This document shows, piece by piece, positions 15,027 to 62,987 of a stretch of DNA of 64,000 bases. Each line of letters starts with the position of its first letter. Positions within the stretch are counted from its first letter, which is position 1. The stretch comes from a virus. Its lineage: Duplodnaviria > Heunggongvirae > Uroviricota > Caudoviricetes. A program made the translations under genes and the position numbers. Location of the stretch: IMG/VR virus record IMGVR_UViG_2541047712_000002; one strand, given 5' to 3'. A model generated the notes under the pieces. That model ran no database searches and had not been told where the DNA came from. It worked only from the letters and a program-made list of their open reading frames with translations.

Positions 15027-15197
15027 TTTAATTACCTGTTTCTGTATATAAATAATAAGTAACTTATTAAATATATATACGGAAGCAGGTCTTTTAAAAG
15101 ACACCCACCAGAACAACTCCCTTCCGTTTCCACTTCCAAAAACTGCCACCAGTCGCTATCATCCGCTCATTGTGATAAGTAAGTAACTACCTACCAG

Positions 15198-15947: not shown

Positions 15948-15990
15948 CTAATACTAGAAAACAATTTGTTTAAAAAACAAAGGAAAGCAC

Positions 15991-17331
15991 ATGACCGAAC
16001 TTTGCCATACAGGACGCGGGCTGTCCGAAGAGTTTGATGAAGATTTCCAGAACAGACTGACGGCATATTTTTGTCGTGATCACGAGTTTCTTACTCGTGC
16101 GGGAGATCTGGTTGTGCCTAGCCAATTTGCCAATGCGGCCAATGCCATATTGGTTAATATGGTTTCGGGCTATTACCGTATGTACAAGAGCGCGCCCTCT
16201 TCATCTGCAATTCTGGATATGCTTAAGCGTGCGAAACGCGATAAGACTATCCGTGAGGAACTATTCGCAGATGTTGTTGCTGCGTTTAAGCGCATTCTTG
16301 CAGAAAAATTGTCCGATACCTCGTACATGGTTGACCAGGTATCAACCTTCGCAAAAAGTGTAGCGTTTGATGATGCTCTGATTAAGGCTGCTGAACTGAA
16401 AGAGAAAGGCGACTTTCAGGGGGCGATGGCAATCATGGCCAAGGTTCAGCAGATTGGATCGAACGAAGCGACCGGAATCTATGACTACTACACCTCCGCA
16501 AGTGAGCGATTGAAAGCGCGTGAATATGAGGCTTCAGAGGAGTATGTACCAAACAGTATTACAACTGGACTCCCTCTTCTCGATAGGTTGCTGTACCAAA
16601 AAGGCTGGGCAAAGCGCGAAATGGTGCTCTTCATGGGGTTCGCTAAATCCGGTAAATCGACCGCAATGGGTGAGTTTTCCATAAACGCAACACTTGCTGG
16701 CTACAATGTTCTGTATCTCTCGCTGGAGGTTCACACCACCATTTTATCCGACCGTTTTGATGCAAGATTGTCGGAGACGGAAATGTCCAAGTTGGTGGAA
16801 CGGCGCGATGAAGTTCATCGCAAGTTGGCAGAGTTGGGAGCTACGAAGGGTATTGGTAGTTTGTGGGTTGTTGAGCGTCCGTCAGGAAGTATGTCACCGG
16901 CAGATCTGGACCGTATGCTTAACAGCATGAAAGCCAACGGCATGGTGCCTGACATGGTTGTTGTCGACTACGCAGATTTGATGCGTGCCAGTTATGACCT
17001 TCGTGATGATCGCGCCAACATTCGTAGTATCTACACCGATTTACGTGCTCTTTATGACAAGCATAACGTTGCTGGGATCACGGCATCGCAGACAAACCGT
17101 GAAGGTGGCGCGTCAGAAGTTGCCACAATGATGCACGCTGCCGACAACATCGAAAAAGTACGTATTGCTGACCTGGTAATAACGATCAACAAAACCGAAG
17201 AAGAAGAAGCGAAAGGAGAGGCTCGTCTCTACTTTGCTGGTTCACGTAACCAGCAGGGAGGGATCAGCATTCGCGTTAAACAAAACCTCGAACAAATGCG
17301 CTTCATTGAGCGAATCTTAGACGTTACCTAA
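15991..17331 (+). CDS. DnaB-like replicative DNA helicase
   Basis: 446-aa ORF; Walker A (GFAKSGKST) in C-terminal RecA-like domain, N-terminal helical domain. Confidence 0.55.
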   Translation: MTELCHTGRGLSEEFDEDFQNRLTAYFCRDHEFLTRAGDLVVPSQFANAANAILVNMVSGYYRMYKSAPSSSAILDMLKRAKRDKTIREELFADVVAAFKRILAEKLSDTSYMVDQVSTFAKSVAFDDALIKAAELKEKGDFQGAMAIMAKVQQIGSNEATGIYDYYTSASERLKAREYEASEEYVPNSITTGLPLLDRLLYQKGWAKREMVLFMGFAKSGKSTAMGEFSINATLAGYNVLYLSLEVHTTILSDRFDARLSETEMSKLVERRDEVHRKLAELGATKGIGSLWVVERPSGSMSPADLDRMLNSMKANGMVPDMVVVDYADLMRASYDLRDDRANIRSIYTDLRALYDKHNVAGITASQTNREGGASEVATMMHAADNIEKVRIADLVITINKTEEEEAKGEARLYFAGSRNQQGGISIRVKQNLEQMRFIERILDVT

Positions 17332-17340
17332 AAAATAAGC

Positions 17341-18594
17341 GTGGAGAACACCTCCACGCTTGATTCATTGGTGAAACAACTTTTCTTTTGCCAAACCACA
17401 AAAGAAAAACACATGAGCCTTTATGTTATATCAACATTTAGGTTGGTCACAATATTGCCTGTTAAAAGTGGAATTATCGTGAGCGAGCTGAAAGAGCTAA
17501 TTACCGAATTAGATTTTGAACAATGGTTGGATACTGAAGGTATCGTTTATCGACGTGGAGGCGTGAGTACTCGCGGTCGTGAAGTGAATATCAAGGAGTG
17601 TCCGGTATGTGGCAGCTCCAACTGGAAGGTATATTTCAATCTGACCAGTGGCGTCGGTAAATGCTTCGCTGGTGATCATCCCGAAGAGATTCAGTTCAAT
17701 AAGCTGGTCTTCCTCAAGCACTACAGCGGCAAATCACGACGACAGTTCGAGGAATATGTGCAGAACGCCCTTCTTTCCCAGGGGTGGGCACCAAAGAAAG
17801 AAGAGCTAGTGCTTGCAAGCACAGTCGAGTTAGAGGGGCCAGTTGCACTCCCTCGTCATTACGAGCTTCCTATAGATGGTCGTCTTCCAGACTATCTGGT
17901 TGAACGAAACATATCGCCTGAAATGGCAAAGTATTTTGACCTACGATACTGCGTCGAAGGCAAGCACGCCTATGTAGATCCGTATACAGATCAGGTTAAA
18001 GGACAGATATTCGATATGCGAATACTGATACCGGTTTACGATCTGGATGGGGTAATGAAGACATTTCAGGGACGAGACATTACCGGTACAGCAGAACGCC
18101 GCTACCTCTTTCCTATGCAGCTTCCAGCTTCAGGTAAATTTCTCTACAACGGCCATAATGCAGTCGGCAAACAGACTGTAGTTGTCTGTGAGGGTGCGTT
18201 CGATGTTATGGGGGTCAAACGAGCTATTTTCGACGAAGAAACATTACGTGATTACGTGGAGCCAATAGGAACGTTCGGGATGCATCTATCTGGCAACACC
18301 ACTCAGGATGCAGAAGATCAGTTGGGCGCGTTCCTGACGCTCAAGGCGCGTGGATTACGTAATGTGATCATGATGTGGGATAGTGAAAAGCAAGCTATAC
18401 GCAACACGATGGCCGCAGCCAGGCGACTGACCAGTATTGGTCTTAATGTCAAAGTGGCGTGTTTGGGCGAGGAAGGACTCGACCCGGGCGATGCAACGCC
18501 AGAGCAAATCATCAAAGCCTATTATCGGGCAAAACCGTATACCAAGCAGTTGGAGTTGCAAAGCAAGGTTTTGGGCATTAAGGCTCTATCATAA
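17341..18594 (+). CDS. DNA primase (zinc-ribbon plus TOPRIM)
   Basis: zinc ribbon CPVCGSSNWKVYFNLTSGVGKCFAGDH and TOPRIM-like segment VVVCEGAFDVMG; true start may be internal. Confidence 0.5.
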   Translation: MENTSTLDSLVKQLFFCQTTKEKHMSLYVISTFRLVTILPVKSGIIVSELKELITELDFEQWLDTEGIVYRRGGVSTRGREVNIKECPVCGSSNWKVYFNLTSGVGKCFAGDHPEEIQFNKLVFLKHYSGKSRRQFEEYVQNALLSQGWAPKKEELVLASTVELEGPVALPRHYELPIDGRLPDYLVERNISPEMAKYFDLRYCVEGKHAYVDPYTDQVKGQIFDMRILIPVYDLDGVMKTFQGRDITGTAERRYLFPMQLPASGKFLYNGHNAVGKQTVVVCEGAFDVMGVKRAIFDEETLRDYVEPIGTFGMHLSGNTTQDAEDQLGAFLTLKARGLRNVIMMWDSEKQAIRNTMAAARRLTSIGLNVKVACLGEEGLDPGDATPEQIIKAYYRAKPYTKQLELQSKVLGIKALS

Positions 18595-18669
18595 CAATCA
18601 CCTTCAAAATAAGTAGATGATTACTTATCTTTCTGTGAGAATACTTTCATCTGTTAGCTAGGAGTTGGT

Positions 18670-19452
18670 ATGAAAGACGAAATTCAGAAATTAGCCTGCG
18701 ACATCATTGATAAAACTGGTTTAGAAATCAGCGAGAGCAATCGGCTAGACATCATTGAAAAAGCCGTAAAAACAGCAATGGATCATATCGCCACTCGTTT
18801 GGTCGAGATCCCGCTACCGGGGCTACCTTATCTGAAGGTTAAGTTACACGTATGGGGTGAACCTTCTTGTGCACGGCGTTCTGCATTAGTTGTTTTTATT
18901 AGCAAAGAAAACCCGATCAGTCTTAAAGTGCAGGTTGGGGCATGGATGGATGGCAAAGTGATCTACACAAATACCGTTTTTTGTGCGTCAAATGACAGTA
19001 TTATTGAAGAGGCTATTCAAGAATCACTTCTAACTATGCATAGCTTATTTTTGCTGGAAGACAAGCAAAACTACGAAGAGTACTTACGGTCGATAAAAGG
19101 TGAGAGAACATTGTCACTTAAAGCCGATTTCGTTACCCCGACAAACCTGTTGGAAGTCTTGCTTAATAAAGGGGCTAATGATGCCGTAAATGTAATCAGA
19201 GAGAGTGAGTATGCGTCTCTTTGCGACATGTGCAAAAGCCAGTTGGATCTGGTGCATATCGTTATTGATGCTGGGAAGGCATGTGATGGCGTAATGGCGG
19301 AGTTTGCTGGGAAGATGGTCAGGATTGCTAACGAATTACCGATGATAGAGCAAGAGGCTAAATCATACGCCACCAATCATGTCACAGAGCTTCTTGTCCC
19401 CTATCGCTTAGAAAGCGATCAGCGCAAGATGATTAGCTGGGGAAGTTGGTAA
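18670..19452 (+). CDS. hypothetical protein
   Basis: 260-aa ORF with RBS (ctaggagttggt ATG). Confidence 0.35.
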   Translation: MKDEIQKLACDIIDKTGLEISESNRLDIIEKAVKTAMDHIATRLVEIPLPGLPYLKVKLHVWGEPSCARRSALVVFISKENPISLKVQVGAWMDGKVIYTNTVFCASNDSIIEEAIQESLLTMHSLFLLEDKQNYEEYLRSIKGERTLSLKADFVTPTNLLEVLLNKGANDAVNVIRESEYASLCDMCKSQLDLVHIVIDAGKACDGVMAEFAGKMVRIANELPMIEQEAKSYATNHVTELLVPYRLESDQRKMISWGSW

Positions 19453-19507
19453 GCTCTCAGTGTGTCGTTTTTTACGCAAATAATGATAGGTAAGCACAAG
19501 ATTATTT

Positions 19508-19990
19508 TTGGCGGTAATTGTGAAAGCTGATTTGTCAAAAATCCCCTCTATTTCAGGAAATAATGGTTATTCACTTCGTTGTGAGGAAGTAAAGATAAAC
19601 GGTGAGTCGGCATATTGCAGCTACTCCGTTTGCCAGCACACCATTCTTGCCTTCAAAGAAAACCGTCTTCCTCGAACTTCATTCCAGTCGTGCGCAACCG
19701 CTATCAAAGCAGGCAAATGCAAGGCGTTAAAAATGATGGTTGAAGAGATTCGTAAAGGAGAATCTCTGTATTTCGAAGATATGACCGCGCTCATTAAGGA
19801 GGTTGAAGAACGGAATAAACAAGCCAGAACTTTAAAACGAAAACGTGACAGTGTAACGATTAATAGCATGGTTAAGAAGAGCACCACATCACAAACAGCG
19901 ATCACTGACGTGTATGCGGCGTTGCTTGAAGAAACAACAAAAGAAACACATGAGCAAATCGATCAACATATGGAGGTAAAACAACAATGA
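19508..19990 (+). CDS. hypothetical protein
   Basis: 160-aa ORF, stop overlaps ligase start. Confidence 0.3.
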   Translation: MAVIVKADLSKIPSISGNNGYSLRCEEVKINGESAYCSYSVCQHTILAFKENRLPRTSFQSCATAIKAGKCKALKMMVEEIRKGESLYFEDMTALIKEVEERNKQARTLKRKRDSVTINSMVKKSTTSQTAITDVYAALLEETTKETHEQIDQHMEVKQQ

Positions 19991-40200: not shown

Positions 40201-40714
40201 GACACGTATGGCGGCTGAAATGGGCTTGGGTGAGGAGTTGATACGCCCGACTATTGGTATTAAACCCAAAATCATGATCATTCTGGACAATGCGAACGGC
40301 AATGACGCTCGTACCGGCTACTTCATGGAGAACGGATACGACGACTTTAAGGCAAAACTACTGACAGTTGGAGATCTGCGCATGGGCGATCTTTATGTCA
40401 CGGGTGTTTGTAAGAAGGTTAAGGACAAAGAGAAAGACTATACCAAAGACGAGATAGGCCAGTTCACAGACTTTATGCGGGAAGAAATTAATCTTGTACG
40501 ACCAACCTACATTTTGACGTGTGGTAGTCGTTCAACCGCACTATTTAACAATAAGAGTAAACCATCAGATCTGATTGGTCGTAAGGAGTACTTCCCAGAG
40601 CTTGATGCAACCGTCTTCTACGGATTTAACCCGAATATCCTGTACTTCCGACCGGAAGAAGGAGAGCGACTGGAGGCCATTCTGGCTGATATCGCGGAGA
40701 CAATAAATAAGTAA
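37196..40714 (+). CDS. dnaE: DNA polymerase III alpha subunit-like replicative polymerase (DnaE-type, PHP domain)
   Basis: 1172-aa ORF; PHP N-terminus, catalytic region LPDADLDFSQARRHEVIEY and GPGRGSSAGSLVAWCIGIT resembling DnaE palm motifs. Confidence 0.7.
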   Translation: MKALMVRTDFSLGESALKAENAVKIAREAGYTAVISADSMNIASVIPLQRAAGDDMAVICGVKLNIVDDPTYEHRAKLAKESMRCMESLERGRNYSFTALIKNEQGYRDICELMTVANTREQFYFVPRLSLEQLVSTYAKGNIILLTSDIGSVFQRNDFAKIISSLITAGGKDNFYSVVYPHPTPFYDQINVRAMKVASALKIEPVAFYPAYYESIDDADIKDIAHMVTNNIKIDQPHRLRIPHQRDNAINGRRHLLEALKAFSVRMDVPVTAAMASTTQDSIIDACTWRWHELPPALPKMADDEPATLMKLAVAGLRKRLTTKEFGYTPPASENRVYVERLKYEMNTLTRLGFCGYFLMVRDLMNHSRETGIPVGPGRGSSAGSLVAWCIGITNVDPIRHGLLFERFINPERLDLPDADLDFSQARRHEVIEYLNERYGEDYVAGIPNFTYLGAASALRDTARIYGVESADMAVSKELKNVEDDSLPLEELREQLASLDKYATKYPDAFNAACKLQSLMRGFGRHAAGMIVAGVPLTERTPVERRGDARCIAFDKRYCEAMGLIKLDVLGLATLDLLDSAKRYIKENTGEDINLDAISLEDRKVLDGFAAGYTQGVFQLESGPMRKLLKDLGGGIEPMSFKTVVATTALFRPGPIQSGMLDDYVSVAKGFMTPESLHPVLDELTAETNGVILYQEQTMNATRLLAGFTMAEADGVRSAIGKKNMEKMKSMGEKFIVQAQAGWIDVELEDGTTQRIHRAEHFKCEDGTLKTVEEALEHGAKLPINAVRVTASHPGLSEMKAKEIWTAFEKNGAYQFNKSHSVAYSLISYQSMWLKTHYPAEFFAAALTILGEDKHQGLVKDALTYGIRVLPPDVNVSSNRIEIRTLEDGSQALYAPFSAVKGCSENGCQAIMRAREKVGGKFESVAQFDEAVEKRACNSRVRESLHKVGAFASIEPGSLPATDPERLRDQAELMGNLIIDAVKASRPFEMNPKRSAEINVLMTRMAAEMGLGEELIRPTIGIKPKIMIILDNANGNDARTGYFMENGYDDFKAKLLTVGDLRMGDLYVTGVCKKVKDKEKDYTKDEIGQFTDFMREEINLVRPTYILTCGSRSTALFNNKSKPSDLIGRKEYFPELDATVFYGFNPNILYFRPEEGERLEAILADIAETINK

Positions 40715-40720
40715 TAAAGA

Positions 40721-40743
40721 AAACCCGCCTGTTGGCGGGTTTA
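40721..40743 (+). terminator. rho-independent terminator after polymerase gene
   Basis: AAACCCGCC-TGTT-GGCGGGTTT followed by T-rich tract. Confidence 0.6.
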
Positions 40744-41017
40744 TAAAGAATTATGGCGCTTGTTGAGGAAGTCACTCCTCTTACGCACTTTGTTTTGCCA
40801 TGCCGGCAGTTAGCTTCTGCCTTTGACTATTCATGCGGCAACCCCGCATTTCGCCACAATGGGCAATTCACTTTTATGGAATAAACTGGCCGTTGTGTCG
40901 ATTTAATTAGCATGGCCTTACCATGCTAATTTATTCAACTTGTACAATCCTACAAATCTATCCACTCAGGCTTACACCGTCTTCGTTATTGTAGAAATGA
41001 GGATCATCAGCGTTGAA

Positions 41018-41233
41018 TCAGCTTAGAGCAACGACATTTGCTGCTGCTGGGCCTTTAGCACCATTCTCGATAGAGAATTCGACCTGCTGGCCTTCTTCCA
41101 AAGTGCGGAAATTATTACTCTGAATTGCCGAAAAATGTACAAAAACATCTTTACTGCCATCAGCAGGAGAAATAAAGCCAAAGCCTTTATCAGAGTTAAA
41201 CCATTTTACTAAACCAGTCATTTTATTAGACAT
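41018..41233 (-). CDS. cold-shock protein (CspA family)
   Basis: minus-strand ORF starting [21 protein letters not shown] (RNP1 KGFGFI) with RNP2-like VFVHFSAI; ~71 aa. Confidence 0.7.
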
Positions 41234-41562
41234 AGATATTACCTTCTTAATTTTGTGAGCCACATAGTGCGGCGAGAATTTGATCTGTATAGATTGGGAC
41301 TTACTTAGGCACTTAAGGAGGAGACTCACGAAGAAGGGAAATCAGAAGATAACACTGAACTGAGACTGCTTTACTAAAACTGCTTACATAAGGTCTGTCT
41401 TGCAAACCAACGATGCTATTAACGCATACCCCTTCTTTTCATGCAACCTTTATTTTTCAAAGATAACTAATTTTTGTCACCATTGGTTTAGTAAACGTTA
41501 ACGAACCAGACGATGCCAGACACCTTTACAGAGAACAGATGCCCGCCAATTGGCGGGCATCA

Positions 41563-42126
41563 TTATGCGCATTTCGCAATATCTTTGCGGCGTTTAATCA
41601 GTTTCTCCGCAATTTGCTCTATTTCGTTGAAATCTTTCGAGACGCTGTTTCGAAGCGCCAGATTCCATTTACTCAAAGTTCGGGCATTTTGGACAATTTG
41701 ATCGCCCTCTTTAAGTCGTCCGTTATTCATGAGCCATTCAGCCACATCAGCCCAATCCCAGAGAGGAGACTGGCCTTTTATGCGTTGTACAGGGCAAGGG
41801 AAGTCGCCGCTTCCGCGCTTACCGTCTTTGAGCAACGCCACTGCCTGGCGAGACAGGTCTGTCAGTTCCGCGATATCGCTTAAGCCCACAAGAGCCGAGT
41901 CGACGGATTCAACAATTGCACCGATACCGGCTGATTCAATATTATCGACCGCAGATGCGATAGCTGCATCAAGTGATTGTGCTTCGCGGTCAAATTCTAC
42001 ATAGACGGAGTTTCCATATGCGCAAATTAGCGCATCGTCACAGCCGTTTTGGTACAGCGCGTCTTCCAGTCCTTCCGTCTCATACGATACGCCTGAGAGC
42101 GTCAGAGTGAAGTTATAAAGCGCCAT
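41563..42126 (-). CDS. hypothetical protein, possibly DNA-binding
   Basis: minus-strand ORF, probable start MALYNFTLTLSG; C-terminal region resembles an HTH-like segment (SPLWDWADVAEWL). Confidence 0.3.
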   Translation of the reverse strand: MALYNFTLTLSGVSYETEGLEDALYQNGCDDALICAYGNSVYVEFDREAQSLDAAIASAVDNIESAGIGAIVESVDSALVGLSDIAELTDLSRQAVALLKDGKRGSGDFPCPVQRIKGQSPLWDWADVAEWLMNNGRLKEGDQIVQNARTLSKWNLALRNSVSKDFNEIEQIAEKLIKRRKDIAKCA

Positions 42127-42186
42127 AGTTTTCCTTTGAAGATAGTTGGACAGTTTCTGCAAAAGGCGGCTAATGCCGCCTTGAAA

Positions 42187-42411
42187 TCATTTACAACGAT
42201 CAACCATTCGTTTGATCTGTTTGGCATGGTTTTCGGGATTACCCGGAGTCGACCATACGCTCATTTGGTGAGTTTTGTGTTCACCTTCTGGATTACCGCA
42301 TCGCAGTCTGCAAAAACAATGTGCAGCACCACCAGCAGCTACCCAGATCCAGCCTTTACTTAATGCATAGTCAATGGCTGCTTGAATATGCTTATTCGGA
42401 TGTTGCTTCAT
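42187..42411 (-). CDS. small Cys/His-rich hypothetical protein
   Basis: 74-aa minus-strand ORF directly upstream of the previous gene; HCFCRLRCGNPEGEHKTHQ cluster. Confidence 0.3.
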   Translation of the reverse strand: MKQHPNKHIQAAIDYALSKGWIWVAAGGAAHCFCRLRCGNPEGEHKTHQMSVWSTPGNPENHAKQIKRMVDRCK

Positions 42412-42665
42412 TCGCCTCCGATAATAGTATTCTATTCACAGTGTTGACATCTGTCAACGGCGACTGAATTTCATCCGTTCATGCCACACCCCCATCCATC
42501 TCATGTATGTGACCTAAAGATGGTCAGCACAGCTTACCAAAATAAGACAACTAATTATCTTCGGTGATCTCAATATCTTCCCCTGAACAAAGTTGACATG
42601 ACGCCATAAACCCGTTCTCTGTTTGATATAATTGATACAGATTTTATAAGTAGGAACCTATTAGA

Positions 42666-43097
42666 GTGAACACTGATATTTTTTCTAAAATCATGGCCGA
42701 TCTGGAGTTCGACCGCGACAACCTTGAGGAAGTATGGCGTAAACAGCCACGGCTTTTAATGGAGTATGGGTCAAAACTAGCGCAGGCAGATCGAGATGTC
42801 GCAGAGGCAAAACTTAACCTTGAAGCTGTTGAAGCAAAGCTATACGACACAGAGCGTAAGAACTTGAGTATGAACGGCATTAAGTTCAACGAGTCTGTAC
42901 TGGACGCTAAGGTTAAAACAAACCCACAGTATCTGTCTAAACGGCAGAAGTTGGATGAAGCACGGCACATCGCAGACATATACAAACATGCTGTCGCCGC
43001 CTTTTCGCATCGCCGAGACATGATCGTTCAGGCGTCAAAGATGGCCATCGTTGAATTAGAGCGATTAGGCTCTGAACGCTTTATTACTCCCCGTTGA
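42666..43097 (+). CDS. hypothetical protein (possible recombination mediator by position)
   Basis: 143-aa helical ORF immediately upstream of SSB, flap endonuclease and RecA genes; function by context only. Confidence 0.3.
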   Translation: MNTDIFSKIMADLEFDRDNLEEVWRKQPRLLMEYGSKLAQADRDVAEAKLNLEAVEAKLYDTERKNLSMNGIKFNESVLDAKVKTNPQYLSKRQKLDEARHIADIYKHAVAAFSHRRDMIVQASKMAIVELERLGSERFITPR

Positions 43098-43214
43098 TTT
43101 TTGATAGATAATAAGTAAGTACTGATCTATCATTTAACAGCTCGAAAGAGCCACGAATGAACGAAAGCCCAACGCGCATAGCGCCATCGGCCAAATCACA
43201 ACAAGGAGAAACAC

Positions 43215-44243
43215 ATGTCTAAGACATTACTTGATTTGCTTAACAAAACTCGTGAAGACATTGCCGCCAAACGTGGTAACAACGTTGATCTGACTCGCTT
43301 AAAAGACGGCGTCAACTATATCCGCATCTTCCCGAATAAAGACGACCCAAACGGTAAGTTCTTCCAGACTTTCGGTATGCACTACGTTAAGTATCAGAAC
43401 GAGGAAGGTAAAGAAGCAACCAACGCTTATATTTGTGAGCAACATACTCACGGTCGCGCTTGTCAGCTATGCGAAATGGTGATGGAAGGTCGCGCTCGTC
43501 ACAAGGGTAACAAAGCAATGGAAGAACGCATCGGTCAAATGCGTGCCACTCCTCGCTACCTGGTCAACGGCATTCTTTCTGCTCGTGAGGATTTCGCAGA
43601 TGCTGAGAAATGCCAGTTAATCGAGCTGCCGTCTACTGTATTCGATGATATCTGCAAAGCAATCACCGAAGACATCGCTGATGATATCGGCAATCCACTG
43701 AGCAAAGAGGAAGGCTACGCATTCCTGATTAAACGTACTGGCTCTGGTCGCGATACCAAATATGACGTCTCGCCTAAGCGTAAAGTCTACAAAGGCGATA
43801 TCGAAGATAAATTCTGGAACACCCAGCATGATCTGATCGCATACGCAAATCAGGCTGATGAAACTCGTCTTCTGTCGACAGTTCGCACTATGGGTCGTCT
43901 GATTGGCATCGCTGCACCAACTGCCGCAGCATCTGCACCAGCAATTTCCTCAACCGCGAAAACATCGGCTGCGGCACTACCTGGATTTGGCTCTGTCACT
44001 GGTCATACAGAAGGAGCGACGGCTGTAGCAACCGCGCACACACCGGCTTCTGAACCAACCAGTCTGGTTGATGAAGAAATCCTCCGTGCCGTTGAAACTG
44101 AATTTAAACCAGAGGCAAGTTCCGCTGCCGTTGCCGTATCAGTCAAAGAGTCTGAAGCAGTCGCAGCGACATCTGTAGCAACCGCATCTGCGACGGAAGA
44201 TGAAGGTCTGGATGACCTACTGAGAGAGCTGGACTCTCTGTAA
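43215..44243 (+). CDS. single-stranded DNA-binding protein (T4 gp32-like)
   Basis: 342-aa ORF; putative Zn-binding cluster YICEQHTHGRACQLCEM; acidic C-terminal tail (EDEGLDDLLRELDSL); Ala/Ser-rich linker. Confidence 0.55.
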   Translation: MSKTLLDLLNKTREDIAAKRGNNVDLTRLKDGVNYIRIFPNKDDPNGKFFQTFGMHYVKYQNEEGKEATNAYICEQHTHGRACQLCEMVMEGRARHKGNKAMEERIGQMRATPRYLVNGILSAREDFADAEKCQLIELPSTVFDDICKAITEDIADDIGNPLSKEEGYAFLIKRTGSGRDTKYDVSPKRKVYKGDIEDKFWNTQHDLIAYANQADETRLLSTVRTMGRLIGIAAPTAAASAPAISSTAKTSAAALPGFGSVTGHTEGATAVATAHTPASEPTSLVDEEILRAVETEFKPEASSAAVAVSVKESEAVAATSVATASATEDEGLDDLLRELDSL

Positions 44244-44252
44244 TCCCATTAC

Positions 44253-45248
44253 GTGACCAGTAAGGCGTCTACGGACGCCTTACTTTTTGGAAGGAATGTA
44301 CCGGTGAATTATCTCTTCGTAGATGGCAATAGCCTGGGTTATTACCACCAACAATCTGACAAATTGCACAACGGCGAAATGGAAGTACAGGCTGCTTTCG
44401 GCTTTGTTAAGAACGTCCGTCGTTATGCCTCCATCCTCCATGTCCGACCTATGATTCTTTGGGATGGATTTAGTGACAAGCGTCGCGACTTTTACCCGGA
44501 CTACAAAGCAAATCGCGACGACGATCCTGATATGAAAAAGATGAAGGAAGGCTTTGCTATCCAGAAGCCATACATCCTCAAAATGATGACCGCGCTTGGA
44601 GTTACCCAACTCATTGCAAAAGATGCAGAAGCGGATGATCTGGCCGGGCTGCTGGTATCCCGCATGGCACCGCAGCCAACCGTTGAACACATCTATCTGT
44701 TAACAGGCGATAGCGACTGGCTTCAGTTAGTTCGTGAAAACGTAAGCTGGGTAAGCCTGCGTGAAGACGCCAAAAACAAGCAGGTTAATTTTGAGCAATT
44801 TGCGGAGCTGACAGGATTCGCCACGCCTCGCTCATTTTTGGAAGCAAAAGCATTACAAGGCGATAAATCGGACAACATTAGCGGTGTTGGTGGCATTGGT
44901 GCTGGCGGTGCGAAAGAGCTGCTGCATGAATGGGGAAGTGTCGCAACGATGGTACGCGGCATCAACGACGGCTCAATCGTGGTTGACAAAGGACGCCATA
45001 AGACCGCCTTCAACAAACTAGCGAAGAATGCCTTCAACGAGAAAACAGGCTGTCGAATGCTCGAAGCGTTCAAGAGAAACATCACGCTAATGAACCTGAT
45101 TGAGACGAAGTTTCCGCCTACCGAAATCGAAACAATCAAAGGCAATCGTGACGTGAAAGCATTCGAGCAACTGTGCTACGAGCTGAATTTCCGTTCGTTC
45201 CTTGAAGACCTTGAAGTGTTTGTTCTTCCATTCGAAAGGTATTGCTAA
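44253..45248 (+). CDS. 5'-3' exonuclease / flap endonuclease (RNase H-like)
   Basis: N-terminal LFVDGNSLGYY and helix-3-turn-helix motif GDKSDNISGVGGIGAGGAKELL; start may be internal GTG. Confidence 0.55.
   Translation: MTSKASTDALLFGRNVPVNYLFVDGNSLGYYHQQSDKLHNGEMEVQAAFGFVKNVRRYASILHVRPMILWDGFSDKRRDFYPDYKANRDDDPDMKKMKEGFAIQKPYILKMMTALGVTQLIAKDAEADDLAGLLVSRMAPQPTVEHIYLLTGDSDWLQLVRENVSWVSLREDAKNKQVNFEQFAELTGFATPRSFLEAKALQGDKSDNISGVGGIGAGGAKELLHEWGSVATMVRGINDGSIVVDKGRHKTAFNKLAKNAFNEKTGCRMLEAFKRNITLMNLIETKFPPTEIETIKGNRDVKAFEQLCYELNFRSFLEDLEVFVLPFERYC
44260..44289 (+). terminator. hairpin after SSB gene
   Basis: TAAGGCGTCT-ACG-GACGCCTTA followed by CTTTTT. Confidence 0.5.
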
Positions 45249-45514
45249 TGCTTAAATCGATTATTAATGGCGCTACAACCACCCCTACCCAACTGGCAAA
45301 AGAGATTGTCTTTTATCACGGTGAGTACGCTGTCATCGCACTGCCGTCAATTCTAGGCGCTGCCGGAATGAAAGCGACAGATCGCGAGTTTGGATTAGTC
45401 AGCGAGCAGGTCGTAAAAATCCTCGCTCGTGTATCCAGACTCCTTAACCACGATGCGATTGTATTCGACGAATCCGCCGCTTTAAAACGAATCAACGAAA
45501 CAAAAGGAGCCTGA
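45242..45514 (+). CDS. hypothetical protein
   Basis: 90-aa ORF between flap endonuclease and recA. Confidence 0.3.
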   Translation: MLMLKSIINGATTTPTQLAKEIVFYHGEYAVIALPSILGAAGMKATDREFGLVSEQVVKILARVSRLLNHDAIVFDESAALKRINETKGA

Positions 45515-45516
45515 TC

Positions 45517-54867: not shown

Positions 54868-55096
54868 AGCAAAGTCGTTATGGGAGCTTTCGAGACTTTG
54901 CCATCACGATGAAAAGACTTGAACGAGGCCAGACGGTGATGTTTCACAAGCCCTACCCGCCACAAGGAAATCCCGTAGCGTTTTATCTTGGAAGGTTAAC
55001 AAGAAAAGGCGTATTGAGGCGCAGATCCTTCCCGGCGCATACGGAGTTCAGATTGAAAGAAGGCCAAAAGCTAACACGCGGTATCAGAGGTGTTAT

Positions 55097-57013
55097 ATGA
55101 AGTTTTTAAAGCTCCAGGTTGAGAATTTTATGGCTATCGCCAGCGCGGAGGTCGAGTTAGATCAGCGTGGTTTAGTGCTTATTCAGGGTGTTAATAGTGA
55201 TGATAGTTCCGCATCAAGTAATGGCTCTGGAAAGTCAACTCTAATGAATAGCCTGATGTGGTGTCTTTATGGCGAAACAGCTCATGGTGTGAAGGGTGAC
55301 GATGTGTTGTCTACCGACCATGAAAAGAACTGTCGTGTTGCAGTAACCATCGAGGATGAAGGCAAGAGATACGCAATCATTCGTCACCGTAAACACAAAG
55401 AGTTCAAAAATCGTCTTATCGTTCGTGGTGAAGATGGCGATATGACGAAAGGCAAAGATGCGCTGACGCAGGAGTTCGTCGAGCGTCTGATCGGTGCATC
55501 TAAAGAGGTTTTCATGGCTTCCATCTATGCGAGCCAAGAAGCTATGCCAGATTTACCTGGAATGTCCGACAAAAACCTCAAAACCATCGTAGAAGAAGCC
55601 GCTGGCGTTGACAGACTGACACGCGCCTACGCTATTGCTCGTGAGCGAGCTAATGCAGCTGCCGCACGTATGGATGTGGTTAAAACCAAATTGGAGTCGA
55701 CAATCTCGACCATTGAGGCAACACAGTCAGAAATTGAGTCAGCGAAAGCCTCCTCTGAATCATGGGAGCAAGAGCGTTCTAAACGTTATGACGATGCCCT
55801 GGCTGGGCTGGCCAGTGCCGAAGTTGAGTTAACGGAAGTTGAACTTGAGATCCGCACTCTTCCCGAACAGATACGTGATACCGAGAAGGCAATCGAAAGT
55901 GAGCGCAAAAAGTTAGCCTCAAAAGAAGAACATGACGCCAAGTTGCTCAAAGTTCGTGGTGCGATAACTGATATTCGGGCAAGCATCAAAGCTACAGAAA
56001 ATAGTCAGGCTGATGCAATGAACCGCGCGCGTAATTTTAAGACCAAAGCAGAAGAGGTTGGTACTAAAGTGGGATCACCATGCCCTACTTGTGGCAAAGC
56101 CTACTGCGAAGAAGATCTATCAACGGTGAAGGAGAGTTTCATTGAACAAGCACGTCAGGAAATTGGTCAGGCGAAGACACTTGCAGAGGCAATGGCTAAA
56201 CACAAAACGAATCTTGAGAAAGCGTTAAGCATTGAGTCTGCCCTTGTTAAAACGACACCTGATGTAACGGCTATCATTGCCCGGATTGAAGAGCTTACGA
56301 AACAACTCTCATCTTTGCGTCATCGTGAGAAGGAGGTTGTTGCTATTGAGTCTCTTGTGACTCGTGCTCGTACTGAGGTCGATCGTATATCAAAAGAGAT
56401 TAATCCGTTTATTGCTCTTATCGCCAGACACGAAGATAACTTGGTATCCAGTAAGTCTACCTTCAAGTCCTTAAAAGATGAGTTGAAGGCTATTCAGGAA
56501 CAAACGTTGCTATTGGAAAAAGCTCGTCAGGTCTACTCTCCTGCCGGGGTGCGTTCTCATATTTTGACGTCTGTTACGCCTTTCCTGAATACACGCACTG
56601 CCGAGTATCTCAATACGTTGTCTGACGGGAATATTACTGCTGAGTGGTCGACGATGGATGTCACTAAAAAAGGTGAGTATCGCGACAAATTCAACATTAG
56701 TGTGCAGAAGAAAGGTTCAAGTAAGTCGTTCCAGACCCTCTCTGGTGGTGAGAAGCGGAAGGTTCGCATTGCGTGTTCTTTGGCATTGCAGGATCTGGTT
56801 AGTAACCGGGCGAGTAAAAACATCGATTTGTTTATCGGCGACGAAATTGACGATGCACTCGATACAGCCGGTCTTGAACGCCTCATGGGTATTCTGGAGT
56901 CCAAAGCTCGCGAGCGAGGTACTGTGCTGATTATCTCCCATAAAGAGATGAAGTCATGGTTCCGGGAAACTATTACGCTGGAAGTTAAAGAGGGGCGCAG
57001 CTATGTCGTTTAA
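55097..57013 (+). CDS. SbcC/Rad50-like ATPase
   Basis: N-terminal Walker A (NGSGKSTL), central coiled coil with zinc hook CPTCG, C-terminal signature LSGGEKRKV and Walker B LFIGDEIDDALD. Confidence 0.7.
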   Translation: MKFLKLQVENFMAIASAEVELDQRGLVLIQGVNSDDSSASSNGSGKSTLMNSLMWCLYGETAHGVKGDDVLSTDHEKNCRVAVTIEDEGKRYAIIRHRKHKEFKNRLIVRGEDGDMTKGKDALTQEFVERLIGASKEVFMASIYASQEAMPDLPGMSDKNLKTIVEEAAGVDRLTRAYAIARERANAAAARMDVVKTKLESTISTIEATQSEIESAKASSESWEQERSKRYDDALAGLASAEVELTEVELEIRTLPEQIRDTEKAIESERKKLASKEEHDAKLLKVRGAITDIRASIKATENSQADAMNRARNFKTKAEEVGTKVGSPCPTCGKAYCEEDLSTVKESFIEQARQEIGQAKTLAEAMAKHKTNLEKALSIESALVKTTPDVTAIIARIEELTKQLSSLRHREKEVVAIESLVTRARTEVDRISKEINPFIALIARHEDNLVSSKSTFKSLKDELKAIQEQTLLLEKARQVYSPAGVRSHILTSVTPFLNTRTAEYLNTLSDGNITAEWSTMDVTKKGEYRDKFNISVQKKGSSKSFQTLSGGEKRKVRIACSLALQDLVSNRASKNIDLFIGDEIDDALDTAGLERLMGILESKARERGTVLIISHKEMKSWFRETITLEVKEGRSYVV

Positions 57014-57746
57014 ATTAAGCCGCTCGCAGTTTTTGCAGGTATTTGCAGTGATGCAGTCGATAAAACTGATCAATGGGCATACTTCCAATGGTGCGGCTCC
57101 ACGTATTCTGTGGGGCAGCAACAATATTGACGGAGTACAATTCGCCGCGTTGCTTGGTCTAATATCCGAGACGCCATTGATGCAAAGTTTGAAATCACTA
57201 CCACCTGGATGTATTGCGCCGATCCTGATTAATCCTTTTGTTGAGGGGGGATATCTTCCCAACGTCGGGCCTGGGTTTATTGCATCCCATGAAACTGAAG
57301 ATCTTAACATTAATAGCGAAGGGTTCTTTGGGGGAATGGGTGCGCATCACTGTATGGCTTTCACGAACCTTATTCGACTTGCCAATAAGCGGGTGGATAG
57401 TTTGGCATCGCCAGGTGATGCTTTTACTGGTTTCCTTATCCAAAGGAGGGATAAAAAGTACAGTGCGGACAAACTACAGTTTGTTGGTAAGTATGGAGAA
57501 ATGGTAGAAATCGAACTTCAGCTCCCTCATGTTTTAGCAAACGATAGTGCAGACAGTCGGAGGCTATTGGGCATCATGCGTCATTTCATAGCAAGTGGTG
57601 TTAAACATGCCGCAGATAAACGTGTCACGCAGGAAAATGAGTATTCAGACTTTGCAAACTATCCCCAACCAACGTTGCAAACGGCAATAGTAGCCAATTC
57701 GTTGGAGGCGAGATTATTGGAAAACCCTATATGGGGAACATGGTAA
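57003..57746 (+). CDS. hypothetical protein
   Basis: 247-aa ORF overlapping the end of the Rad50-like gene. Confidence 0.35.
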   Translation: MSFKLSRSQFLQVFAVMQSIKLINGHTSNGAAPRILWGSNNIDGVQFAALLGLISETPLMQSLKSLPPGCIAPILINPFVEGGYLPNVGPGFIASHETEDLNINSEGFFGGMGAHHCMAFTNLIRLANKRVDSLASPGDAFTGFLIQRRDKKYSADKLQFVGKYGEMVEIELQLPHVLANDSADSRRLLGIMRHFIASGVKHAADKRVTQENEYSDFANYPQPTLQTAIVANSLEARLLENPIWGTW

Positions 57747-57755
57747 GGAGACTAT

Positions 57756-58325
57756 ATGAGTAAAAAAATCAGCGTAGTTGGTGTTGATCCCTCAATGAGC
57801 AACTTTGGGCTTGCTGTGGGCACTTTAGACCTTGAGACGGACGAACTTGAGATTCACGGCCTTACTCTTGTTGAGACTAAAGCGGGGAGTAACAAAAAGA
57901 CCGTTCGTGTGAACAGTGACGATCTGCGCCGCGCCAGTGAAATATGGCGTGTTGCGAAGCCAATCATTGATAAGGCAAATATGGTTTTTTGTGAGCTACC
58001 GGTTGGGAGCCAAAACTCTCGTTCGCAGACGTCTTACGGTATTTGTATCGGTGTACTTGCGTGTGTGGATAAGCCATTGATCCAGGTTACTCCAAACGAA
58101 ATCAAGCATTTTGTCGGCAATAAACTTACTACATCGAAAGAAGAGATTATCCAGTGGGCTACGAAAAAACACCCTAAAGCACCGTGGCTGCGTCGTAAGC
58201 AATCTGGACAGGATGTTCTCGTGAACAAAAACGAACATTTGGCTGATGCGGTGGCTGCCATCCATACCGGTATGCAAACAGATCAGTTCCGCCAGGTGCG
58301 CGATGTTCTTAAGTCTCTCATTTGA
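57756..58325 (+). CDS. RuvC-like Holliday junction resolvase (putative)
   Basis: 189-aa ORF; N-terminal ISVVGVDPSMSNFGLAV resembles the first catalytic Asp motif of RuvC-fold nucleases. Confidence 0.4.
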   Translation: MSKKISVVGVDPSMSNFGLAVGTLDLETDELEIHGLTLVETKAGSNKKTVRVNSDDLRRASEIWRVAKPIIDKANMVFCELPVGSQNSRSQTSYGICIGVLACVDKPLIQVTPNEIKHFVGNKLTTSKEEIIQWATKKHPKAPWLRRKQSGQDVLVNKNEHLADAVAAIHTGMQTDQFRQVRDVLKSLI

Positions 58326-58398
58326 TTTCATTGATAGGTAAGTGCTTATCTATTAACATGGGCCACTATATTTAGTGGCCCTCTTTATTTGGTGATAC

Positions 58399-60714
58399 AT
58401 GATAAGCATCGTAAAACGTAACGGCCAAACAGAGCCGTTATCCGAAGAAAAATACAACCGCGTCGTAATGTATGGCGTAGAAGGCATTCGTGGTGTAAGC
58501 GCATCCGCTGTAGCAATGGGAGCTGCGGCCAGCATTTTTGATGGGATTACCACCAGCCAGTTGCATGAGGCTTTGGTTAAATCTGCCGCTGATTTGATCT
58601 CACCAGAAGCACCAAATTACTCACAGGTGGCTGCCCGCCTGAACATTTTTAAAATCCGCAAAGATGCCTTCGGTCGTTACGACTATCCGAACTTCTACCA
58701 ACACATTGTCAAGAACGTTAACAAGGGCGTTTATGACAAGGATTTGCTGACACATTATTCGTTTGAAGAGATCGAAGAACTCGGCAATTACATTAAGCCG
58801 AAACGTGACGATCTTTTTGGCTATGCAGCTACGGTGCAGTTGCAAAGCAAATACCTCGTTCAAAACCGTGTTACTGGTGAGATTCATGAGGGGCCGCAAC
58901 ATATCTATATGCTGGTAGGCATGTGTCTGTTCCAGAATTGGGAAGACGACTGCGCTGGCAAAACACGTATGGAGATGGTCAAAGGTTTCTATGACGTTAC
59001 AAGTACGTTCAAACTGTCTCTGCCCACACCAATCATGGCCGGCGTCCGTACTCCAACCCGTCAGTTCTCCAGTTGTGTGCTGATTGAGTCTGGCGATAGT
59101 CTGAAAGGGATTAGTGCAGCTTCAGCCGCAATTATCGACTACGTTTCACGTCGTGCTGGAATTGGTATTGGTTTTGGCCGTATCCGTGCGCTGGGCAGCG
59201 AGATCCGCAATGGTGAAGCCACCCATACTGGAGTTATTCCATTCCTGAAGCATTTCCAGACGGCTGTTAAATCTTGTTCGCAAGGTGGTGTTCGTGGTGG
59301 CGCAGCAACAGCGTTTTACCCGATCTGGCATCTTGAAGTTGAAAGTCTGCTGGTGGTGAAAAATAACCGTGGTATTGATGAAAACCGCGTTCGCCATCTT
59401 GATTACGGCGTCATGAGTAACCGTCTAATGTACCGTCGACTCGTCAGAAGCGAGAACATCACTCTGTTCAGCCCGCATGATGTGCCTGATATGTACGAAG
59501 CCTTCTTCACAGACCAGGATCTGTTTGAAAAGCTGTACCATAAATACGAAGCCGATGATTCAATTCGCAAGAAGTCAGTACCTGCCATTGAGCTGTTCTC
59601 ATCTCTGATGCAGGAACGAGCGTCCACGGGCCGAATTTATATTGCGAACGTCGATCATATTAACGAGCATGGCGCTTTCATTCCTGCTCTTGCACCTGTT
59701 CGCCAGTCAAACCTGTGCATGGAGATCACTCTACCCACCCGTCCACTGGCATTTACCGACGACCCGAACGGTGAGATCGCGCTATGCACTTTATCCGCTT
59801 TTAACCTCGGAGCCATCCGTTCACTGGAGTCTCTTAAAGAGGTGGCGTTCTATGCCGTTGCTGCACTGGATTCGTTACTGGATTATCAAGACTATCCGAT
59901 GGAGGCAGCCGAAGTGCCTGCCAAAGCTCGTCGTAGCCTGGGAATTGGTGTAACCAACTTTGCTTATTACCTGGCAAAGAATGGCGTTCGTTATTCTGAT
60001 ACCGCTGGCAATAAACTGGTGCATGAAACGTTCGAAGCTATCCAGTATTACCTTCTTGACGCCAGCTGCCGACTTGCTGAAGCAAAAGGTGAGTGTGACT
60101 GGTTTGAGCAGACCAAATACGCAATTGGTCAGTTGCCGATCGACCATTACCGTTCTTCATTAGACGAAAGCGGCGAAACCAACTTTGAGTTAAAGATGCC
60201 GTGGGAAGAACTGCGTGAACGTATTGCAAAATACGGCCTTCGCAACTCCACTCTGACGGCACAAATGCCATGCGAGACTTCCAGCCAGATCACTAATTCC
60301 ACCAACGGCATCGAACCGCCTCGTGGCCCGGTGTCGGTGAAATCTTCTAAGGACGGCATCGTTAAGATGGTCGTGCCTGAGTTTGAAAAACTGAAGGAAC
60401 AGTATGAATACCTGTGGGATATGCCGGACAACCGCGGCTATCTGACAAAGGTGGCGATCATCCAGAAGTTCTTTGACCAGGCTATTTCAGCTAATACCAA
60501 CTATGACCCTTCTCGCTTTGAAGGCGATAAAGTCCCAATGATGACGCTACTGTCAGATTTGCTTCTCGCCTACAAGATGGGAGTTAAAACGCTTTACTAC
60601 CACAACACCAGAGATGGTGCAGGAAAGCGTGATGACGACGAAGCGCAGAATCCACTTACGCAAGCTGTAGCCGTCGAGCCAGAAGATGAGTGCGACGGAG
60701 CCTGCAAAATCTGA
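58399..60714 (+). CDS. nrdA: ribonucleoside-diphosphate reductase alpha subunit (class Ia)
   Basis: 771-aa ORF; N-terminal ATP-cone, active-site SNLCMEI, C-terminal Cys pair (CDGACKI). Confidence 0.8.
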   Translation: MISIVKRNGQTEPLSEEKYNRVVMYGVEGIRGVSASAVAMGAAASIFDGITTSQLHEALVKSAADLISPEAPNYSQVAARLNIFKIRKDAFGRYDYPNFYQHIVKNVNKGVYDKDLLTHYSFEEIEELGNYIKPKRDDLFGYAATVQLQSKYLVQNRVTGEIHEGPQHIYMLVGMCLFQNWEDDCAGKTRMEMVKGFYDVTSTFKLSLPTPIMAGVRTPTRQFSSCVLIESGDSLKGISAASAAIIDYVSRRAGIGIGFGRIRALGSEIRNGEATHTGVIPFLKHFQTAVKSCSQGGVRGGAATAFYPIWHLEVESLLVVKNNRGIDENRVRHLDYGVMSNRLMYRRLVRSENITLFSPHDVPDMYEAFFTDQDLFEKLYHKYEADDSIRKKSVPAIELFSSLMQERASTGRIYIANVDHINEHGAFIPALAPVRQSNLCMEITLPTRPLAFTDDPNGEIALCTLSAFNLGAIRSLESLKEVAFYAVAALDSLLDYQDYPMEAAEVPAKARRSLGIGVTNFAYYLAKNGVRYSDTAGNKLVHETFEAIQYYLLDASCRLAEAKGECDWFEQTKYAIGQLPIDHYRSSLDESGETNFELKMPWEELRERIAKYGLRNSTLTAQMPCETSSQITNSTNGIEPPRGPVSVKSSKDGIVKMVVPEFEKLKEQYEYLWDMPDNRGYLTKVAIIQKFFDQAISANTNYDPSRFEGDKVPMMTLLSDLLLAYKMGVKTLYYHNTRDGAGKRDDDEAQNPLTQAVAVEPEDECDGACKI

Positions 60715-60814
60715 CATATGGTGGGGTATATCCCCACCTTATCTTTGATTTGTAAGCCTTGTTTAAACACATAAGATAACAACTTGTTTAAACACATCAA
60801 AAAAGGAAAAACAC

Positions 60815-61957
60815 ATGTCATATTCAACGTTCCGTTTGGGTGCTAATGATGCAACCAAAGAGCCTATGTTCCTCGGACAATCTGTCAACGTGGCTCGTTA
60901 CGATCAACAAAAATACCGTGATTTTGAAAAGTTGATTGAACGTCAATTGTCTTTCTTCTGGCGGCCGGAAGAAGTTGATATTTCGAGCGATCGCATCGAC
61001 TTCAATACGAAGCTGCGGGACCACGAACGCCACATTTTCCTGAGTAATCTCCGTTATCAAACGTTGCTCGATTCAGTTCAGGGACGTAGCCCAAACGCAA
61101 CTCTGCTGCCGCTTATCTCTATTCCTGAACTGGAAACGTGGGTTGAAACGTGGTCTTTCTCTGAGACTATCCATAGCCGCAGCTACACCCACATTATTCG
61201 TGGCATGGTGGACGATCCGAGTATTGTTTTTGACGGTATTGTTACGGATGAAGAAATCATCAACCGAGCCATCAGTATCTCTGCTGAATATGACAGGCTT
61301 TATGGGATGACCTGCGATCGCCAGTCGTTAGGCGAGAAGGAATTTGAGCGTCTGTACGTAAATGAATATGGCTGGGAGCCATATCCTTTGCACCGTCAGC
61401 TTTTCCGCACGTTAGTGTCCATTAATGCGCTTGAGGCGATCCGTTTCTATGTAAGTTTTGCATGTACGTTTGCCTTTGGCGAACGGAAGTTGCTTGAGGG
61501 TAACACCAAAATTATGCGCTTTATTGCCCGTGATGAAGCTCTGCATTGCGAAGGAACTGAACGCATGATCCGCTTCATGCGTACCGGTCGCGAAGGTTTA
61601 TTGTGGAAAGAGATTGCTGCTGATGAAGAAAACGTCATTTACGACACCATGAAATCAGTCGCCGAACAAGAAATGAACTGGGCAGACTATCTCTTCAAAG
61701 ACGGTTCGATGATTGGTTTAAACGCGGATACTCTGAAGACCTATGTAAAATACCGAACCAATCTGGCTATGAATCGTCTTGGCCTGAAGGCTTTATTTCC
61801 AGAAGTTACCACTGATCCGCTGGTCTGGATGAACAAGTGGTTGTTAACCGACACACTGCAAATTGCACCACAAGAGGCAGAGCAAAGCACATATCTGGTA
61901 GGTCAGATCGATTCTACCGTGGACAAGGCTTCTCTAAGCCAGTTTGCAGACCTGTAA
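60815..61957 (+). CDS. nrdB: ribonucleoside-diphosphate reductase beta subunit (class Ia)
   Basis: 380-aa ORF with di-iron ligand motifs ([23 protein letters not shown]). Confidence 0.8.
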
Positions 61958-62962: not shown

Positions 62963-62987
62963 TATTCGTTTTGGTGGCCTATGGCCA
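62963..62987 (+). terminator. rho-independent terminator
   Basis: TGGTGGCC-TAT-GGCCACCA followed by TTTTTTT. Confidence 0.6.

Follow-up and report, generated by a model that had tools for sequence, protein, structure and literature searches.

Why should a helicase, a DNA polymerase, a single-stranded DNA-binding protein (SSB) and several other products of one mobile element be translated from start sites that are almost the same over roughly 20 positions? The question is raised by the virus record IMGVR_UViG_2541047712_000002 of IMG/VR, of which a stretch of 64,000 nucleotides (here called the window) was analysed. The window represents most of an SSU5-like phage-plasmid, and over most of its length it is ~97-99% identical to Escherichia phage Cyrano (OV696614), the plasmid of E. 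coli LF82; the SbcD protein of the window has 100% identity with that of 'Escherichia phage CMS-2020a'. An earlier note on this DNA had listed eight starts with a near-invariant context, and had proposed that they share a translational operator of the RegA type or are selected for a specific efficiency of initiation. We find that the context marks a discrete class of genes and is conserved by selection, and we consider it quite possible, at somewhat less than an even call, that it is an operator read by a trans-acting factor.

A shared leader on a discrete class of genes

A search of the window with AAAGGWAAARCACATG, allowing at most 2 mismatches, returned 7 matches where 0.23 were expected, a number that was reached in 0 of 100 shuffles. 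The sites were used to build a 16-position weight matrix (23 bits), which was scanned over every position of both strands (~128,000 in all). The nine top sites score from 15.5 to 22.2 bits (10.4 to 21.2 bits in a leave-one-out calculation), above every other position of the window; all are on the plus strand, directly 5' of the ATG of a real gene, while the best non-member scores 12.7 bits and is located away from any start codon. All eight starts of the earlier note are among the nine, those at 15991 and 47949 as variants one base shorter, and its list has to be extended by a ninth, the primase start at 17413, which it had overlooked. The near-identity that it described between two of the leaders (49537-49558 and 53763-53784) is likewise borne out, as they differ only by one extra A. 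Similarity among the sites reaches ~8 nt upstream of the Shine-Dalgarno (SD) sequence, and can be summarized as AAyCAyAAAGGAAAAACAC-ATG. The products encoded behind it are a helicase, a primase, a CobS-type ATPase, the alpha subunit of DNA polymerase III (Pol III alpha), SSB, SbcD, NrdB and a few small proteins, and an intergenic gap of 43 nt or more lies before each of their genes. What is diagnostic is the multiplicity of the 16-mer and its register with the start codon, and not the 16-mer as such, which in its exact form has more than 120 matches in IMG/VR, each a single copy in an unrelated viral contig.

When the whole Cyrano genome is scored in the same way, 12 genes reach at least 12.3 bits, namely the orthologues of the nine window genes together with TciA, Ead and Eae; one further gene follows at 5.9 bits, and the remainder stay below 4 bits. 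With hyp87, a weaker case outside the window, the total for Cyrano is 12-13 genes. A score of 8 bits, or a CAC at positions −3 to −1, is found in 0 of 25 late genes of Cyrano (head, tail and lysis, with the major capsid gene included) and in 0 of 82 genes of E. coli K-12, a sample that comprises the S10, spc, alpha and str ribosomal operons, tufA, fusA and the fliC region; of the 98 genes of the element other than these late ones, 12 have the motif. The scores are bimodal rather than graded, and the motif genes are a discrete class, not the tail of a continuum. The earlier note had asked whether the context might be equally frequent at host genes; these counts show that it is not, and they rule out a host or local SD preference as its explanation. 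The pentanucleotide AAGGA, which is complementary to the 3' end of 16S rRNA over 5 nt and sits 7 nt from the ATG in most copies, accounts for only about 5 of the ~20 conserved positions.

Conservation of the leader was studied in 160 related IMG/VR loci around SbcD and the helicase, whose proteins are 77-100% identical to those of the window; the orthologous starts were placed by N-terminal tblastn, and identities were counted among distinct variants. At positions −4 to −1 (ACAC) identity is 94% in the seven motif genes covered versus 70% in 20 control genes (p=0.004), while at positions −30 to −15 the values are 60% and 63%, respectively, and the flanks have drifted equally. CAC is kept in 130 of 145 variants of the motif genes (YAC in 139) versus 39 of 440 variants of the controls. 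ACAC-ATG persists despite changes in the SD sequence (AAGGAG, AAGGGT, AGGAC) or, in the helicase, a spacer longer by 4 bases, and in other lineages it is found also on NrdA and SbcC. SSU5 itself has the motif on primase, CobS, Pol III alpha, SSB, SbcD and the orthologue of the gene that starts at 49556. The A-run and the CAC beside the AUG are under stronger purifying selection than the same positions elsewhere; the conservation past the SD sequence to which the earlier note called attention is thus real, selected and confined to one gene class. A divergent element of K. pneumoniae has retained the synteny, with the motif on at least 8 genes; in an Acinetobacter relative the order CobST-dnaE-SSB-RecA-SbcCD-NrdAB is the same, but there is no shared leader.

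The leaders are also distinctive in their physical character. Their A+C content is 80%, versus 49% at the other starts of the element, and the predicted mean probability of being unpaired over positions −20 to +3 is 0.64, versus 0.48 at the other starts (p=1.6e-4).

The individual copies and the DNA signals around them

In the window, the tail genes are followed by the lysis and partition genes and by a long block on the plus strand, which encodes the helicase, primase, ligase, CobT/CobS-type proteins, Pol III alpha, UvsY, gp32-like SSB, an exonuclease, a RecA/UvsX-like protein, SbcCD, RuvC, NrdAB, MazG and ThyX. The nine copies of the motif, all in plus orientation, are distributed along this block. 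The first, aaaaaacAAAGGAAAGCAC-ATG at 15972-15993, precedes the DnaB-like helicase; it is one of the shorter variants (17.9 bits), and it is kept in the relatives, where ACAC-ATG is retained even with the longer spacer. The primase copy, aaaccacAAAAGAAAAACAC-ATG at 17394-17415 (20.6 bits), places the ATG at 17413, 66 nt upstream of the GTG (17479) that matches the annotation of Cyrano and SSU5. Since the resulting N-terminal extension of 22 residues is conserved, and aligns from residue 1-6 in 54 related loci, 17413 is probably the true start of the primase gene, and the start given in the Cyrano and SSU5 records would be corrected accordingly. The copy of the CobS/MoxR-type AAA ATPase (gagaacAAAGGAAAAGCGC-ATG, 35761-35782, 18.3 bits) is farther from the consensus than that of its SSU5 orthologue, AAGGAAAAAACAC-ATG. 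The copy of Pol III alpha (aaaaccatAAAGGTAAAAACAC-ATG, 37177-37198, 15.5 bits), whose core is identical in SSU5, falls within a small open reading frame (ORF) at 37012-37221 that overlaps the Pol III alpha start. This ORF encodes 69 residues from a TTG start and has no Pfam hit; a similar small coding sequence is annotated in SSU5 (46442-46645), and translational coupling with Pol III alpha is possible.

The copy of the gp32-like SSB (aaatcacaaCAAGGAGAAACAC-ATG, 43196-43217, 19.6 bits) is invariant from −14 to −5 among 8 distinct variants of the orthologues. The gene for a membrane protein of 66 residues that starts at 47949 has the other shorter variant (aacaaccacATAGGAAAACAC-ATG, 47930-47951, 16.2 bits), in which positions −4 to −1 are 100% kept in 20 variants. 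It is preceded by a terminator (47861-47881) and by a promoter-like TTGAAA-17-TATTAT (47891-47919), so that its 5' untranslated region may be ~23 nt long, essentially the motif alone. The exact 16-mer is present in the last three copies: that of a 91-residue protein with start at 49556 (taaccacAAAAGGAAAAACAC-ATG, 49537-49558, 21.2 bits); that of the SbcD-like nuclease (ataaccacAAAGGAAAAACAC-ATG, 53763-53784, 21.8 bits), where CAC-ATG is found in nearly all of 32 distinct variants from 80 related loci; and that of nrdB (catcaaaAAAGGAAAAACAC-ATG, 60796-60817, 22.2 bits), which follows a hairpin at 60720-60738 and the palindrome TAACAACTTGTTT (60777-60789). A possible tenth copy at 19939-19952, upstream of the ligase, was rejected: it lies in the frame of the preceding ORF, where it encodes a conserved K-E-T-H-E, and the ORF that it would open is not conserved.

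Two families of palindromes are found near gene starts. The first, AAACAAnTTGTTT, occurs in the window at 12732-12744, 15959-15971, 33544-33556, 49046-49058 and 60777-60789, which is 12-35 nt upstream of the starts of ParA, the helicase, CobT, the gene at 49075 and nrdB. Cyrano has ~20 copies, mostly ~13 nt past a GATAAT-like hexamer and 12-30 nt before an ATG, with a dense group among small genes at 93-98.5 kb; a probable role for this palindrome is that of an operator at early promoters, bound by a dimeric regulatory protein. The second family, of the type TAAGTA-NN-TACTTA, has 23 matches in the window versus 2.2 expected, all of them reported on the plus strand and placed before many genes (for example at 15176-15193, 22132-22149, 35703-35716, 43112-43125, 47898-47915, 53651-53668 and 63045-63058); a longer form is GATAAGTA..TACTTATC. 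These may be a second class of promoters or operators. In the Acinetobacter relatives an analogous TAAGCGCTTA occupies these positions, and a factor of the sigma-70 family is encoded as well. Scans for sigma-70 promoters and for terminators gave no enrichment over shuffled sequences, and the one at 47891-47919 is the only good promoter match in front of a motif copy. GC-rich hairpins with T runs separate genes at 17337-17361, 47861-47881, 49000-49019, 58360-58381, 60720-60738 and 62972-62990, which suggests that the replication block consists of many short transcription units rather than of one long operon.

The leader motif follows AAACAAnTTGTTT in the helicase and nrdB genes, a TAAGTA-type palindrome in the genes at 47949 and 49556, and neither of them in the Pol III alpha and SSB genes, and many genes that bear a palindrome are without it; it is separable from the transcription signals and cuts across them. 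Because it is separable in this way, asymmetric, and in exact register with the ATG, the motif would be expected to act at the level of RNA or translation.

Other features of the window concern its gene content. A low-GC island at 26591-31265 (33-37% GC), not present in Cyrano, contains a chaperone-usher fimbrial operon (fimbrial subunit, PapD-type chaperone and usher), and is cargo particular to the element of the window. Also not in Cyrano and without Pfam match are a 445-residue protein on the minus strand (23693-25030) and, after the partition genes, two proteins of 253 and 140 residues (13850-15026). A cluster of tRNAs at 22898-23512 reads Asn(gtt), Tyr(gta), Ser(tga); the matching cluster is annotated as Asn, Thr, Ser in Cyrano, a discrepancy in the middle tRNA that is either real or a matter of how it was called. 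The minus strand between Pol III alpha and HicB has a full-length cspA thermoregulator leader (Rfam RF01766, 187.6 bits; 40993-41411) followed by a gene for a cold-shock-domain protein (PF00313, E=4e-33), both unannotated in the Cyrano record.

Possible readings of the leader

These observations can be interpreted in different ways. As exact bases adjacent to the AUG are conserved throughout the class and absent from the most highly expressed genes of the host and of the phage, we favour, tentatively, a class-specific reader. In such a mechanism AAGGA, 7 nt from the AUG, would recruit the 30S subunit in an open context, and the additional conserved bases would provide a common operator for a trans-acting RNA-binding repressor in competition with the ribosome; a single post-transcriptional control could in this way extend over a regulon for replication, recombination and nucleotide supply, despite the different types of promoter.

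As to the identity of the reader, the proposal of a RegA-type operator made in the earlier note has fared unevenly: the conservation is selected and specific to a class, as it implies, but the protein and the operator that would go with it are not in evidence. RegA (PF01818) gave no Pfam hit in 69 Cyrano proteins (scanned as concatenated chunks) and 10 ORFs specific to the window, and a tblastn search with the 1REG sequence against the six frames of Cyrano and of the window gave no match with an E value below 1.5; the tblastn search also covers a few structural proteins that were outside the Pfam scan. Two other proteins of the window were considered and rejected for want of any link to the motif, the ASCH-annotated protein (52883-53527), whose region has no Pfam hit, and the cold-shock protein (ORF 41018-41329, minus strand).

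A different candidate surfaced from a domain scan of the hypothetical proteins of Cyrano. CYRAN_114 (173 residues; 100780-101301 of Cyrano, minus strand) belongs to PF03614, 'repressor of phase-1 flagellin', and matches the profile over its full length (E=1.7e-79, 266 bits, positions 1-170 of 170); the gene, which lies outside the window, has as neighbours hypothetical proteins, a lipoprotein, UvsW and ParB, with no adjoining flagellin gene or invertase. The founder of the family, FljA of Salmonella, is reported to bind the 5' leader of fliC mRNA and to prevent its translation (PMC2652032, citing Bonifield & Hughes 2003 and Yamamoto & Kutsukake 2006). The FljA-like protein is predicted to contain two tandem Hfq/Sm-like domains, the model having the N-terminal helix and, after it, the bent sheet of five strands that are seen in Hfq structures. 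A profile search of the family against the PDB sequences gave no hit, and only the comparison of folds is informative; we found no paper connecting FljA to the Sm fold in the literature searched. If the model is correct, a tandem Hfq-like fold may also explain how Salmonella FljA binds fliC mRNA.

The distribution of the gene follows that of the SSU5-like elements of enterobacteria. Among 50,697 phage records, the complete genomes with an FljA-like gene are exactly the 12 SSU5-like ones, and two further matches are partial and in short fragment records. SSU5-like phage-plasmids abound in clinical Escherichia, Klebsiella, Salmonella, Enterobacter and Yersinia, and in PLSDB, where their genes occur in more than 800 plasmids, the FljA-like gene is present in 835 plasmids with taxon counts that mirror those of SbcD (FljA-like/SbcD: Klebsiella 345/352, Yersinia 62/63, Enterobacter 92/93, Acinetobacter 0/138). 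The divergent K. pneumoniae element mentioned above, in which the leader is kept, has an FljA-like copy that is 43% identical, and the Acinetobacter relative without the leader has no FljA-like gene. Klebsiella pneumoniae is a host without flagella; because the gene is retained in hundreds of K. pneumoniae plasmids, its target would not be the host flagellin. On this circumstantial evidence the FljA-like protein is the best candidate for the reader, one that we put forward with considerable doubt. The equally doubtful model that results is that of an FljA-family protein acting as a global translational repressor of tandem-Hfq type, with the AUG-anchored, A/C-rich leader of ~12 genes as its operator.

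Expression in LF82 lysogens can be read in more than one way. In the supplement of PMC9928086 the motif genes are at background mRNA level (log2 ~3-5), while the value for CYRAN_114 is 4.2 in LB and 7-8 in the B1, B6, MB1 and MB6 samples, which we take to be cell-culture and macrophage conditions; its pattern resembles that of the putative repressor CYRAN_45 and of the partition and toxin-antitoxin genes. A protein that is made in the prophage state, when its putative targets are already silent, fits a second lock on these genes, and fits an unrelated role equally well.

Several considerations weigh against an operator read by the FljA-like protein. Each step that leads from a conserved leader to an operator is one that we infer, and leaders rich in A and C or in CA reportedly enhance translation in E. 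coli with no dedicated factor. True FljA is only 35-40% identical to the phage-plasmid protein; the fliC leader of E. coli is unlike the motif (−10.8 bits when anchored at the AUG, 3.2 bits at best elsewhere), and the FljA-like gene has no motif at its own start. In flagellated hosts the gene could be a moron that represses the host flagellin. The co-occurrence of motif and FljA-like gene comes down to a single event in the phylogeny, and Acinetobacter differs as a host, also in its ribosome-binding habits. Finally, with the motif genes silent in lysogens, control of transcription alone may suffice.

The main rival is the second proposal of the earlier note, selection for a specific efficiency of initiation, which we regard as a live possibility although on the unlikely side. 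According to this explanation, the leader would be an optimised, unstructured ribosome-binding module acting only in cis: a moderate SD sequence at ideal spacing in a non-folding A/C leader, which may bind ribosomal protein S1, would be kept by selection for reliable and fast translation of replication proteins and spread by recombination of leader cassettes, with no dedicated regulator. The A+C content and the predicted lack of pairing of the leaders are as such a module would have them, AAGGA with an A-rich spacer of 7 nt is a good initiation context in E. coli, the gap before each motif gene leaves the leader free to be optimised, and the silence of these genes in lysogens means that a second lock is not strictly needed. 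Yet, if CAC and the A-run were simply optimal, they should mark the genes with the highest expression, and they are found neither in the host sample, with its ribosomal proteins and EF-Tu, nor in the late genes. The bimodality of the scores counts against this explanation as well, and so does the conservation at −4 to −1 of base identity beyond A/C composition, strict and confined to the class; moreover, several of the motif genes encode small proteins without an obvious need for high output.

Alternatively, the leader might be an operator with another reader, either the gp32-like SSB, which would bind the unstructured A/C-rich leaders cooperatively when free of single-stranded DNA and so extend the autoregulation known from T4 gene 32 to a whole regulon, or the host proteins Hfq or CsrA; this we find improbable. 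The SSB gene itself has the motif, the targets are replication proteins for which demand tracks the amount of single-stranded DNA, the leaders are predicted to be unpaired, and the motif holds 2-3 consecutive A-R-N triplets (AGG-AAA-AAC) and an ACA-N-GGA element. However, the strict CAC before the AUG is explained by none of the three; binding by gp32 is not sequence-specific, and in T4 it needs a long unstructured tract and a pseudoknot; and there is one GGA per leader, whereas CsrA targets usually have two.

A role of the motif at the DNA level, as an operator or as part of a promoter, is very unlikely, and so is the view that it is a neutral remnant of cassette duplication. Repeated DNA signals near starts are certainly abundant in this element, as the two families of palindromes illustrate, but the motif is asymmetric, restricted to the coding strand and in exact register with the ATG whatever is upstream, at variable distance from the palindromes and from −10-like hexamers. 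A neutral origin is excluded, as conservation peaks at the bases adjacent to the start codon while the flanks drift by ~40%. Least probable of all is a trans-encoded antisense small RNA that would pair from the SD sequence to the AUG and co-repress these genes as the P1 c4 RNA does with ant: 20 nt held in common by the genes would suit such an RNA ideally, and RNAs of this kind are in use in other phage-plasmids, but a duplex scan of both Cyrano strands, which addresses RNAs encoded by the element, found as its best off-motif site one of −19.7 kcal/mol, no better than shuffled motifs (−15.6 to −21.5 kcal/mol), and Rfam recognized only tRNAs and the cspA leader in the window.

Implications and comparison with known systems

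We found no account of gene regulation in SSU5-like phage-plasmids; the papers retrieved on them are surveys of genomes, and the transcriptome of the Cyrano lysogen does not address translation (PMC9928086). Against this background the motif offers a concrete short RNA element on replication genes. If it is an operator, it would delimit a regulon under post-transcriptional control, which could govern whether the element is quietly maintained as a plasmid or replicates lytically; if it is only an enhancer, it would still be a compact and portable leader with unusually strict sequence rules. A reading of the motif by the FljA-like protein would amount to a RegA-like regulon whose repressor has an unrelated fold. 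A 'flagellin repressor' homologue that is kept even in non-flagellated hosts would thereby gain a function, and such a reading would imply that Salmonella FljA and the phage-plasmid regulator share an origin, one having been recruited from the other.

Among the systems with which the leader can be compared, the A/C-rich and CA-repeat enhancers (the omega sequence of tobacco mosaic virus in E. coli, and CA multimers) are likewise unpaired A/C leaders that are said to boost initiation; they act by composition, whereas the element conserves the exact order of the bases next to the AUG in one gene class. Hfq and CsrA bind single-stranded A-R-N or GGA sequences at the SD and repress, and the candidate reader is itself predicted to be Hfq-like. 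Unlike it, they are global regulators of the host with loose motifs and no link to the element, and a tandem-domain FljA-like protein would be distinct from both. The autogenous control of T4 gene 32, whose leader contains AAAAAGGAAAUAAAAAUG, also involves an unstructured, A-rich leader with a similar SD sequence, bound by an SSB, and the SSB gene of the element has the motif. In T4, however, a single mRNA is controlled, through a 5' pseudoknot and a long tract and without sequence specificity, while the element has 12 short CAC leaders. Salmonella FljA shares with the candidate of the element full-length membership in PF03614, and differs from it in that the phage-plasmid protein, at its low level of identity, is unlinked to a flagellin gene or an invertible promoter; the proposed targets would be ~12 genes of the element instead of a single gene of the host, and there is no copy of the motif in the fliC leader.

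The closest parallel in organization is T4 RegA. The gene set of the element is T4-like (gp32-like SSB, UvsX/Y/W-like proteins, gp46/47-like SbcCD and NrdAB), and in both cases many early genes for replication and nucleotide metabolism would share a sequence recognised by a protein, overlapping the AUG and near an A-rich SD. As in a RegA-type regulon, the sites abut the AUG of several genes, nine in the window and 12-13 when the whole element is counted. The operators of RegA are rich in A and U and little conserved, and their SELEX consensus is AAAAUUGUUAUGUAA; a U-containing operator of this kind is not seen here, as most copies of the motif have no U/T from −19 to −1. The element lacks a RegA homologue, and its motif, at 23 bits, varies much less than those operators do and reaches past the SD in the upstream direction. 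Overall, a leader this uniform on many genes appears to resemble the T4 RegA regulon in its logic and to differ from it in sequence and, if the candidate holds, also in the fold of the protein that would read it.

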